DNA of 64,000 bases from an uncultured Pseudomonadota bacterium (GCA_900320405.1 OOHM01000002.1:236461-300460); one strand, 5' to 3'. Positions 32,776 to 33,220 are shown, numbered from the stretch's first letter. The notes: generated by a model from the sequence alone, not told the origin. Numbers and translations: made by a program.

Positions 32776-32852
32776 CGGAGTATAGCTCAGCCTGGTAGAG
32801 CGCTACGTTCGGGACGTAGAGGTCGTAGGTTCGAATCCTGTTACTCCGACCA
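32776..32852 (+). tRNA. tRNA-Pro (anticodon CGG)
   Basis: Cloverleaf folded by hand: 7-bp acceptor cggagta/tactccg, D-arm gctc/gagc, anticodon stem ctacg/cgtag with loop ttCGGga, TΨC loop ttcgaat (T-stem has two G·U pairs), 3' ACCA. Confidence 0.75.
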
Positions 32853-32895
32853 TAAATTTAAACCGCCGCTATCCCTCGTGGCGGTTTTAATTTAT
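32853..32895 (+). terminator. Terminator hairpin after tRNA-Pro; also the first copy of a 45-bp direct repeat
   Basis: 'aaaccgccgctatccctcgtggcggtttt'. The repeat recurs at 33176-33220. Confidence 0.55.
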
Positions 32896-33131
32896 TTGGT
32901 TCGGTGTTAAGGATGAGAACCGTGGTTCGAAACCAAGTAGATTTTGCAAGCATCGGGCCCCACAAAATTTGAAAAATTTTGTGGGTGATAAATAGCGTAG
33001 CGAAATCGTCACGGGTTGCGCGCAGCCGGCATATAGTGCCGCGCGAGCGAATACGAGAATACAAAATTAGCAAAAATTTAAAAATTTATTGGAAATAAAT
33101 TTTTTAATTTTGATTATTGTGTATCGAGGCC

Positions 33132-33220
33132 CCTGTTACTCCGATCACCCTTCGTTAAAACTTCGGGTGACAGGCCATAAATTTAAACCGCCGCTATCCC
33201 TCGTGGCGGTTTTAATTTAT
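33132..33220 (+). repeat. Duplicated tRNA-Pro 3' end (13 nt) plus second copy of the 45-bp repeat, an att-site-like scar
   Basis: 'cctgttactccga' equals the tRNA 3' end. 33176-33220 is identical to 32851-32895. Confidence 0.55.

Follow-up and report, generated by a model that had tools for sequence, protein, structure and literature searches.

What does it mean when the 3' end of a tRNA gene, together with the terminator behind it, recurs a few hundred base pairs further downstream, and what lies between the two copies? We asked this of a tRNA-Pro(CGG) gene with an encoded CCA, placed identically by ARAGORN and Rfam, in a stretch of 64,000 nucleotides (hereafter the window) from an uncultured Pseudomonadota bacterium (GCA_900320405.1 OOHM01000002.1:236461-300460) whose lineage is the Candidatus Enterousia group of gut and rumen alphaproteobacteria. 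An initial annotation read the repeats as attL and attR, the attachment (att) sites left by a tRNA-targeting integrase, and the sequence between them as what remained of an element that had been lost or had decayed. The reading we favour, at slightly less than even confidence, is of a conserved, structured, non-coding cassette that is probably an RNA mimic of the tRNA acceptor/T arm and is gained and lost by recombination between its repeats.

The duplication of the tRNA-Pro 3' end is readily confirmed. The CCA end of the gene and the intrinsic-terminator hairpin that follows it (T1) recur downstream (with terminator T2) as an exact direct repeat with 0 mismatches, measuring 46 bp rather than the 45 bp first counted; 0 such repeats are expected in shuffled sequence. 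The 13 nucleotides that precede this block in the tRNA acceptor/T-stem strand, CCTGTTACTCCGA, occur in just two places in the window, within the tRNA gene (32837-32849) and in the downstream copy (33132-33144). With 0 repeats expected in shuffles and the 13-mer in two places only, a chance repeat is ruled out. The copies are offset by 295 bp for the 13-mer and 325 bp for the 46-mer, in line with the 300-350 bp originally described, and the two offsets differ because the second copy carries a 30-nucleotide (nt) insert (33145-33174) between the 13-mer and the 46-mer. The unique sequence left between the repeats amounts to 236 bp (32896-33131), much as the earlier estimate of about 240 bp had it. 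The initial annotation had also considered that the repeat might be a generic, dispersed miniature inverted-repeat transposable element (MITE); no further copy of the 46-mer was found in the 64-kb window at up to 3 mismatches.

Comparison contigs were found through look-ups of the acyl-CoA synthetase and MltG proteins in public assemblies (contigs and loci carry L numbers below). At least 12 independent contigs carry a filled allele identical to the window at the cassette, which rules out an assembly artefact. Contig L004, in contrast, contains the tRNA gene and a single terminator, followed at once by the mltG promoter, and lacks exactly 325 bp; since it shares 97.2-98.9% identity with the window over 7.7 kb, the two represent one species. 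The 325 bp behave as one discrete indel, the whole unit being either there or not. The nearest other species (L014, L015 and L024, at 80-86% nucleotide identity) all have the cassette, and farther relatives (L016-L018 and L020) have an empty site. Loss of the unit by recombination between the direct repeats is the simplest account of the empty allele, though the event could have run the other way.

The filled and empty alleles also bear on a local origin of the unit. A simple tandem duplication is ruled out, the middle being foreign to the empty allele. A variant in which tRNA-Pro and its terminator were duplicated together and the second tRNA copy then decayed would account for repeats that are co-linear with the tRNA 3' end and terminator, and for a 14/16 match to the sequence upstream of the tRNA that precedes the second 3' copy. 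We consider it extremely improbable: the 236 bp are not derived from tRNA except for the arms described below, and the same core is found behind unrelated tRNAs in other phyla. The 16-nt match was dropped as probably a chance one, since the spacer of L039 keeps it despite a tRNA with a different upstream sequence.

The filled relatives share a conserved 5' part of the 236 bp. It includes a 19-mer core, GATGAGAACCGTGGTTCGA, which was used as an exact query to gather a family, first from one genome per species and then from a metagenome scan. Species-representative genomes yielded 34 loci, against about 4 expected (our own estimate from the size of the collection), and in 31 of the 34 a tRNA gene on the same strand precedes the 19-mer by 29-90 nt; 22 further loci from the metagenome scan bring the total to 56 public loci. 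The few matches within coding sequence or inside one tRNA-Gln gene look like chance occurrences. The hosts span at least three phyla, with Enterousia-like Alphaproteobacteria, many Sphingobacterium species, Cytophagales, Marivirga, Ekhidna and Crocinitomicaceae joined by Gammaproteobacteria (Marinicella and Glaciecola) and Verrucomicrobiota, Bacteroidota being included in the count. Nine tRNA anticodons are represented: Pro(CGG), Pro(TGG), Ser(GGA), Ser(TGA), Met, Val, Asn, Gln and Lys.

Across this range the parts of the cassette follow one order: tRNA, terminator, inverted arm, core, one or two hairpins, direct tRNA copy and, often, a second terminator. The inverted arm complements the 3' strand of its own tRNA inward to position 59 and, in Enterousia, outward up to the CCA. 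Within the invariant core, GAUGAGAACCGUGGUUCGA, the GAU is the partner of AUC in the far arm, and a 4-bp hairpin, GAAC-CGUG-GUUC, sits between GA and GA. Next comes a lineage-specific stretch, from 22 nt to over 100 nt long, with one or two hairpins, and the direct copy begins at A58/A59 of the tRNA in most loci where it was found. The inverted and direct copies pair with one another on the tRNA strand over 10-19 bp, closing a three- or four-way junction. The content of the unit ranges from 75 to 330 bp, the smallest (L069) being about 75 nt long.

Several tests support this fold and the correspondence between arm and tRNA. Folding produced a closing helix from both arms in most of the nine units tested, and the duplex of an arm with its own tRNA ranked first among 15-17 targets in 9 of 17 loci and within the top five in 13 of 17. 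For the closing helix we used a curated set of 14 representatives covering at least 8 tRNA species, in place of a noisy automatic ungapped search for the 3' partner. Here, the helix is 77% paired where shuffles average 69% (a level that 0 of 500 shuffles attain), and the covariation score is 0.271 against 0.141 (again 0 of 500), with slid controls at 0.12-0.16. Inner hairpins covary as well, with CG to UA and GC to CG compensatory changes in Enterousia type A and a GC to AU change at two pairs in type B, counts that come from small samples of related sequences. Type-B cores are about 97% identical (read from the alignment) between hosts whose flanking genes are 81-83% identical. Because the junction strands are invariant in Enterousia and the substitutions sit in helices, the pattern is that of a structure under selection and not of junk.

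How, then, does the scar of a lost element fare? Here an island or prophage integrated at tRNA-Pro would have been almost wholly deleted, leaving its attL and attR and some 240 bp of junk. A direct repeat of a tRNA 3' end with its downstream flank and an empty site in a conspecific strain both agree with such a history, and part of the attL/attR signature stands, in that the repeats bound a discrete unit, a second tRNA 3' copy is present and its boundary in other loci of the family falls in the T-loop. The island itself does not appear. Between the repeats, no relative has an island, an integrase or cargo. Over 30 contigs, from the species itself and from nine related ones, show neither an intact island nor an integrase at the site, which is either empty or occupied by the same small cassette. 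The supposed junk holds the core, unchanged over its 19 nt behind tRNAs in three phyla, along with covarying hairpins that show compensatory substitutions among species; the unit is equally small everywhere, with the same compact plan, free of open reading frames (ORFs), in about 45 loci. Nor is there a coding remnant in the 236 bp, which contain only short ORFs that match nothing in Pfam or PHROG. The island-scar view is largely refuted, and we regard it as very improbable.

The geometry of the core invites a second comparison, with a hammerhead-like self-cleaving ribozyme in which GAUGA-G(stem II)C-GA, set between two further helices, would cleave at the edge of the tRNA 3' copy and release unit-length RNAs from arrays, as in ribozyme-bearing satellite repeats. 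The likeness lies in the three-way junction, in GAUGA before and GA after a G-C-closed hairpin, arranged so that tandem G.A pairs could form, and in the tandem arrays with a period of 127-148 nt. Several Sphingobacterium-type copies (L025, L032, L042, L044, L054, L055 and L075) also contain CUGAUGAG, the window having CGAAAC. The catalytic positions do not agree. The window reads AGGAUGA, and in the family as a whole both the base that follows CGA and the two that precede GAUGA are variable, so that neither C3 and U4 (AG, GG or GU) nor A14 (CGAU, CGAC or CGAG) is conserved; the UH site is not conserved either. The core GAU pairs with AUC of the 3' copy, making part of the would-be catalytic strand helical. 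Even permuted hammerheads still need CUGAnGA and GAAA blocks (PMC10085705). No Rfam hammerhead or other ribozyme model matches at E up to 1-5; Rfam 15 reports nothing but the tRNA, both between 32000 and 34000 of the window (E<=5) and in eight other loci (E<=1). A canonical hammerhead is ruled out by the lack of conservation at catalytic core positions, and a related ribozyme seems to us a very remote prospect on this comparison of sequences.

The cassette of the window is a modified version of the common plan (Table 1). It belongs to a subtype, A-long, that also comprises L024, L031 and L039, the last behind a tRNA-Pro(TGG). Set against the short relatives used for comparison (L014, L030, L051, L058 and L060), it has three secondary insertions (the palindrome in the P3a loop, the 79-nt spacer and the 30-nt hairpin), a loss of 1 nt in the inverted arm (ACAGG to AAGG) and TCA replacing CCA. 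The inverted arm forms the 5' strand of the closing helix P1; its pairing with the 3' copy, clear in relatives, is imperfect in the window owing to the 1-nt loss and the spacer insertion. The palindrome and the T-arm-like element that the initial annotation had remarked between the repeats are both present.

Table 1. The tRNA-Pro locus of the window and the parts of its cassette (positions from the first nucleotide of the window).
Feature	Position	Strand	Remarks
Promoter-like site of tRNA-Pro	32708..32735	+	TTGCAA, 16 nt, TATAAT
tRNA-Pro(CGG) gene	32776..32852	+	CCA encoded; 3' strand is template of both cassette arms
Repeat copy 1: CCA and intrinsic-terminator hairpin T1, 46 bp	32850..32895	+	exact repeat
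Inverted arm X', TTGGTTCGGTGTTAAGGAT	32896..32914	+	imperfect reverse complement of tRNA 3' strand, from about position 59 to CCA
Family core, 19-mer GATGAGAACCGTGGTTCGA	32912..32930	+	begins 60 nt past the tRNA
Core hairpin P2, GAAC-CGTG-GTTC	32917..32928		GA on either side
T-arm-like GGTTCGAAACC	32924..32934
Hairpin P3a	32940..33007	+	GATTTTGC (32940-32947) pairs with GCGAAATC (33000-33007); insertion in apical loop
Secondary insertion, dispersed palindromic repeat in P3a loop	32951..32991	+	missing from orthologous cassettes L024, L031, L014
Palindrome CCCACAAAATTTGAAAAATTTTGTGGG	32959..32985		relatives at 30730-30761 and 58972-59013
Hairpin P3b, GC-rich, ending in GAGCGAAT	33018..33052	+	in short relatives GAGCGAAT directly joins the tRNA 3' copy
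AT-rich spacer, about 79 nt, with 18-bp palindrome	33053..33131	+	in L024, L031, L039 (A-long); not in short relatives
Direct copy of tRNA 3' strand, CCTGTTACTCCGA	33132..33144	+	3' strand of P1
30-nt hairpin insert between tRNA 3' copy and terminator	33145..33174	+	similar ones at about the same place in L030, L058, L022
Repeat copy 2: CCA and terminator hairpin T2	33175..33220	+	same as copy 1
mltG promoter-like site	33231..33259	+	adjoins the single terminator in the empty allele

Two of the inserted sequences are found elsewhere. The dispersed palindromic repeat, GGCCCCACAAAATTTGA(A/G)AAAATTTTGTGGGTG, occupies three intergenic regions of the window in one orientation (30730-30761, 32951-32991 and 58972-59013) and looks like a small repeat of this genome resembling repetitive extragenic palindromic (REP) sequences. 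A hairpin of about 30 nt (..CTTCGTT..CTTCG..GTGACAGG) stands before the second terminator in several cassettes of differing types and may be a tiny repeat with a preferred site.

Two observations concern the core itself. In a soil metagenome (L059, 649-722), a tRNA-Gln(TTG) gene contains the 19-mer internally, across the 3' strand of the anticodon stem, the variable loop and the T-arm, which hints that the core may descend from a tRNA 3' half. In the near-identical genomes L014 (5672-5690) and L026 (7895-7913), the 19-mer differs by three substitutions (GGTGAGAAGAGTGGTTCGA in L014), with another substitution just 5' of it and the following 100 nt identical; these differences could be a consensus error in a metagenome-assembled genome or local decay of the core.

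The repeats bear on how the cassette comes and goes. Tandem arrays occur in several genera (L025, L029, L036, L049, L057, L066 and L075), with a period of 127-148 nt or longer and degenerate partial units at the array ends. The two terminators are identical within a species and differ between species in the window, L015, L037, L038 and L045, and in L015 a compensatory change in the stem is present in both copies; such identity indicates gene conversion or recent duplication. The terminators differ from each other in L024, L051, L058 and L060. Terminator alleles a, b and c are found around near-identical cores in three pairings, (a,b), (b,c) and (a,c), the outcome to be expected of unequal recombination in an array. 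Gain, loss and homogenisation thus require only homologous recombination between repeats.

Much of the same evidence could be read as the work of a non-autonomous integrative mini-element, the main rival reading, which we regard as possible but less likely. A circle carrying the tRNA 3' end, terminator, inverted arm, core and hairpins would recombine site-specifically in the T-loop by means of a recombinase supplied in trans; the tRNA would be restored, and its old 3' end would become the second repeat. The fold would then be a site acting in cis, possibly as single-stranded DNA in the manner of integron attC or CTX-phage attP. Such an element would explain why tRNA identity starts in the T-loop, as it does at T-loop att sites (a sublocation said to belong to the classification of Williams 2002), why the terminators are unequal in four loci, as if one had arrived with the element, and why filled and empty alleles both occur. 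It would also fit the arrays, the degenerate copies and the presence of several loci per genome in Sphingobacterium; the occurrence of one subfamily at differing tRNAs within a single clade (Pro and Lys in Sphingobacterium; Met, Ser and Gln in Gammaproteobacteria); and a cassette type that does not track host relatedness in Enterousia. Against this, no ORF, integrase or transposase was found in or beside the cassette in any of about 50 loci examined. An integrase query matches the window only at 19818-20819, with no integrase remnant in the 236 bp, and the corresponding gene (19818-20822), the window's only integrase-like one, has no match to a catalytic integrase domain and is kept in filled-site and empty-site genomes alike. 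The core 19-mer has no match in IMG/VR, the phage collection INPHARED, the plasmid collection PLSDB or an E. coli collection, and on this search a phage or plasmid origin was rejected. Crossover in the T-loop of another tRNA would supply a foreign acceptor strand and damage that tRNA, multiple compensatory changes within one cassette type favour long residence over recent spread, and homologous recombination suffices for both arrays and empty sites.

The integrase-like gene, on the plus strand, encodes a 334-amino-acid (aa) protein in which Arm-DNA-binding, SAM-like and central integrase domains are recognised. Its conservation among related species is 78-99%; it is encoded beside acpP-fabF in relatives and may be a domesticated, inactive integrase.

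If the structured cassette acts as RNA, as we tentatively favour, read-through from the strong tRNA promoter would make the cassette RNA and the transcript would stop at the second terminator. The sole candidate promoter upstream of the cassette is the tRNA-Pro site. The closing helix would imitate the acceptor/T-arm stack of the adjacent tRNA, and the RNA could serve as a decoy or as a processing substrate for tRNA-binding factors. Homologous recombination or gene conversion at the direct repeats of 46-59 bp would delete the unit (giving the empty allele), multiply it (giving arrays) and keep the terminators alike. The anatomy, the family, the matching of arms to tRNAs, the compensatory changes, the indel and the arrays are observed; we infer transcription, RNA-level action and tRNA mimicry, and the means by which a cassette would obtain arms for a new tRNA.

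A number of points weigh against this interpretation. The tRNA is separated from the cassette by a good terminator, and no promoter is called inside the cassette, for which reason RNA expression stays a proposal. The strand signal in the helices is weak and not decisive (36 G.U against 20 A.C), so that an RNA fold and a single-stranded-DNA fold are both possible, as is a purely DNA-level inverted repeat. The invariance of the core is partly by construction, the core having been the search key. In the window, folding predicts the closing helix poorly, and for that reason this elaborated member of the family may be decaying. Degenerate or truncated copies (L042, L054, L064/L068/L072 and the array tails) and an uneven distribution over species suggest a selfish element more than a gene that the host needs. 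Finally, the RNA model leaves the matching of arms to a new tRNA unexplained, and the same is true of the integrative mini-element.

The last point is met by a further proposal, which we consider doubtful: that these are self-retargeting elements spread across phyla, made of a conserved scaffold and a guide-like arm complementary to the 3' end of their own tRNA. Arm and copy would be written with the tRNA or its gene as source, whether by tRNA-primed synthesis, by template switching or by an RNA-guided enzyme encoded elsewhere. In Enterousia the complementarity of the arm to the tRNA 3' end covers about 18 nt, with position 59 as its limit. Known systems that carry a guide or a primer site include the IS110 bridge RNA, the omega RNA of TnpB/IscB, the homing CRISPR RNAs of CRISPR-associated transposons that target tRNA genes, and the retroviral primer-binding site. 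The cassette resembles these, by resemblance only, in having a short arm, complementary to the insertion target, beside a conserved scaffold, and the stop at position 59 is like that of a primer-binding site. In contrast to the guide-bearing element RNAs, it has no associated recombinase, nuclease or reverse transcriptase.

The cassette shares features with other known systems as well, and fails a defining feature of each one that was open to testing. Like the att scars of tRNA genes, it presents an intact tRNA followed by a direct copy of its 3' part from the T-loop, which can extend into the flank, and an empty site in a sister strain; unlike them, it comes without integrase, cargo or a large relative, has an extra inverted copy of the tRNA 3' end, and joins one core to many tRNAs. 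Cis-mobilizable elements (CIMEs), as far as known, are kilobase-scale deletion derivatives of an identifiable integrative and conjugative element (ICE) or integrative and mobilizable element (IME) in the same species. For the cassette no parent element was found, the loci examined containing no ICE or IME of the same specificity, and the small form is the conserved form. It shares with CIMEs, which are att-flanked remnants of ICEs and IMEs (PMC5704250), the flanking att-like repeats and the lack of recombination or transfer genes. MITEs are similar in being small and non-coding, with inverted terminal arms (10-19 bp in the cassette), presence/absence polymorphism and degenerate copies. The cassette differs from them in that its arms are copied from the target tRNA and change with the target, its flanking duplication is 46-59 bp and not a few bp, no parent transposon is known, and it is found always behind a tRNA in one to few copies per genome, with one in the window. 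Among tRNA-mimicking RNAs, YrlA (PMC4201824) and the tRNA-like domain of transfer-messenger RNA likewise have a helix of the 5' and 3' ends with an acceptor-like strand, a CCA in some lineages and a T-loop-like GGUUCGA. The cassette departs from both in having no D-arm, true T-arm, Rfam match or rsr neighbour, and in owing its mimicked strand to the tRNA gene beside it.

The surroundings of the cassette raise further points. It is flanked by an AMP-forming acyl-CoA synthetase gene (30927-32612, minus strand) and by mltG. An ORF of 399 aa with a TTG start (33089-34288) runs across the second repeat in the window, and the earlier suspicion that this long mltG reading frame is spurious appears well founded: MltG homologues are mostly 339 aa long, and public gene calls give 349 aa. 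Because of these lengths and the position of the mltG promoter-like site, the real start of mltG is best placed at ATG 33269, giving a protein of 339 aa on an almost leaderless transcript, with the 399-aa ORF over-extended. Between the tRNA-Pro promoter and the mature 5' end, a terminator-like hairpin (32741-32756; CGTTCCTTCGAGAACG plus a T-rich run) is kept in relatives and could be a leader attenuator.

On the mltG side the slot is hypervariable in several relatives, with unrelated ORFs (284 aa, 463 aa and others) between the second terminator and mltG (L015 5100-5954; L037 1786-3177; L038 2402 onward; L045 2793-3572). That these are cargo bounded by a third tRNA copy was ruled out, no third copy of the tRNA 3' end being found. 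Inverted arrays of the heptamer TTAGTGG and its variants accompany terminators and intergenic hairpins in the lineage of the window (L014 5833-5960; L015 4925-5085; L016 5846-5960; window about 30890-30925 and 58900-58920); they are plentiful 3' of the cassette in relatives and missing at that place in the window. On the other side, about 8 kb (approximately 22716-30898, with nrdR, a lytic transglycosylase gene, RNase HII and pgk) separates fabF from the acyl-CoA synthetase gene in the window, and the two adjoin each other in L014, L016 and L020.

A full-text search, core sequence included, found no description of the cassette in the literature open to such searching. If our interpretation is right, the 19-nt core marks a folded, gene-less family across Alpha- and Gammaproteobacteria, Bacteroidota and Verrucomicrobiota whose arms track the identity of the neighbouring tRNA, and which the RNA-family, phage and plasmid collections and the literature searched do not list. 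It would then be either a small mobile element or a candidate tRNA mimic of a new sort, and self-retargeting, if true, would mean that tRNA genes can be targeted and copied in a novel manner. Where part of a tRNA is repeated behind its gene, annotation usually records the scar of an island; that label is wrong here and may be wrong at other tRNA loci. Cultivable Sphingobacterium species (carriers include S. faecale, S. olei and S. pedocola) have one to three copies of the cassette, some of them arrayed, which makes these ideas directly testable.
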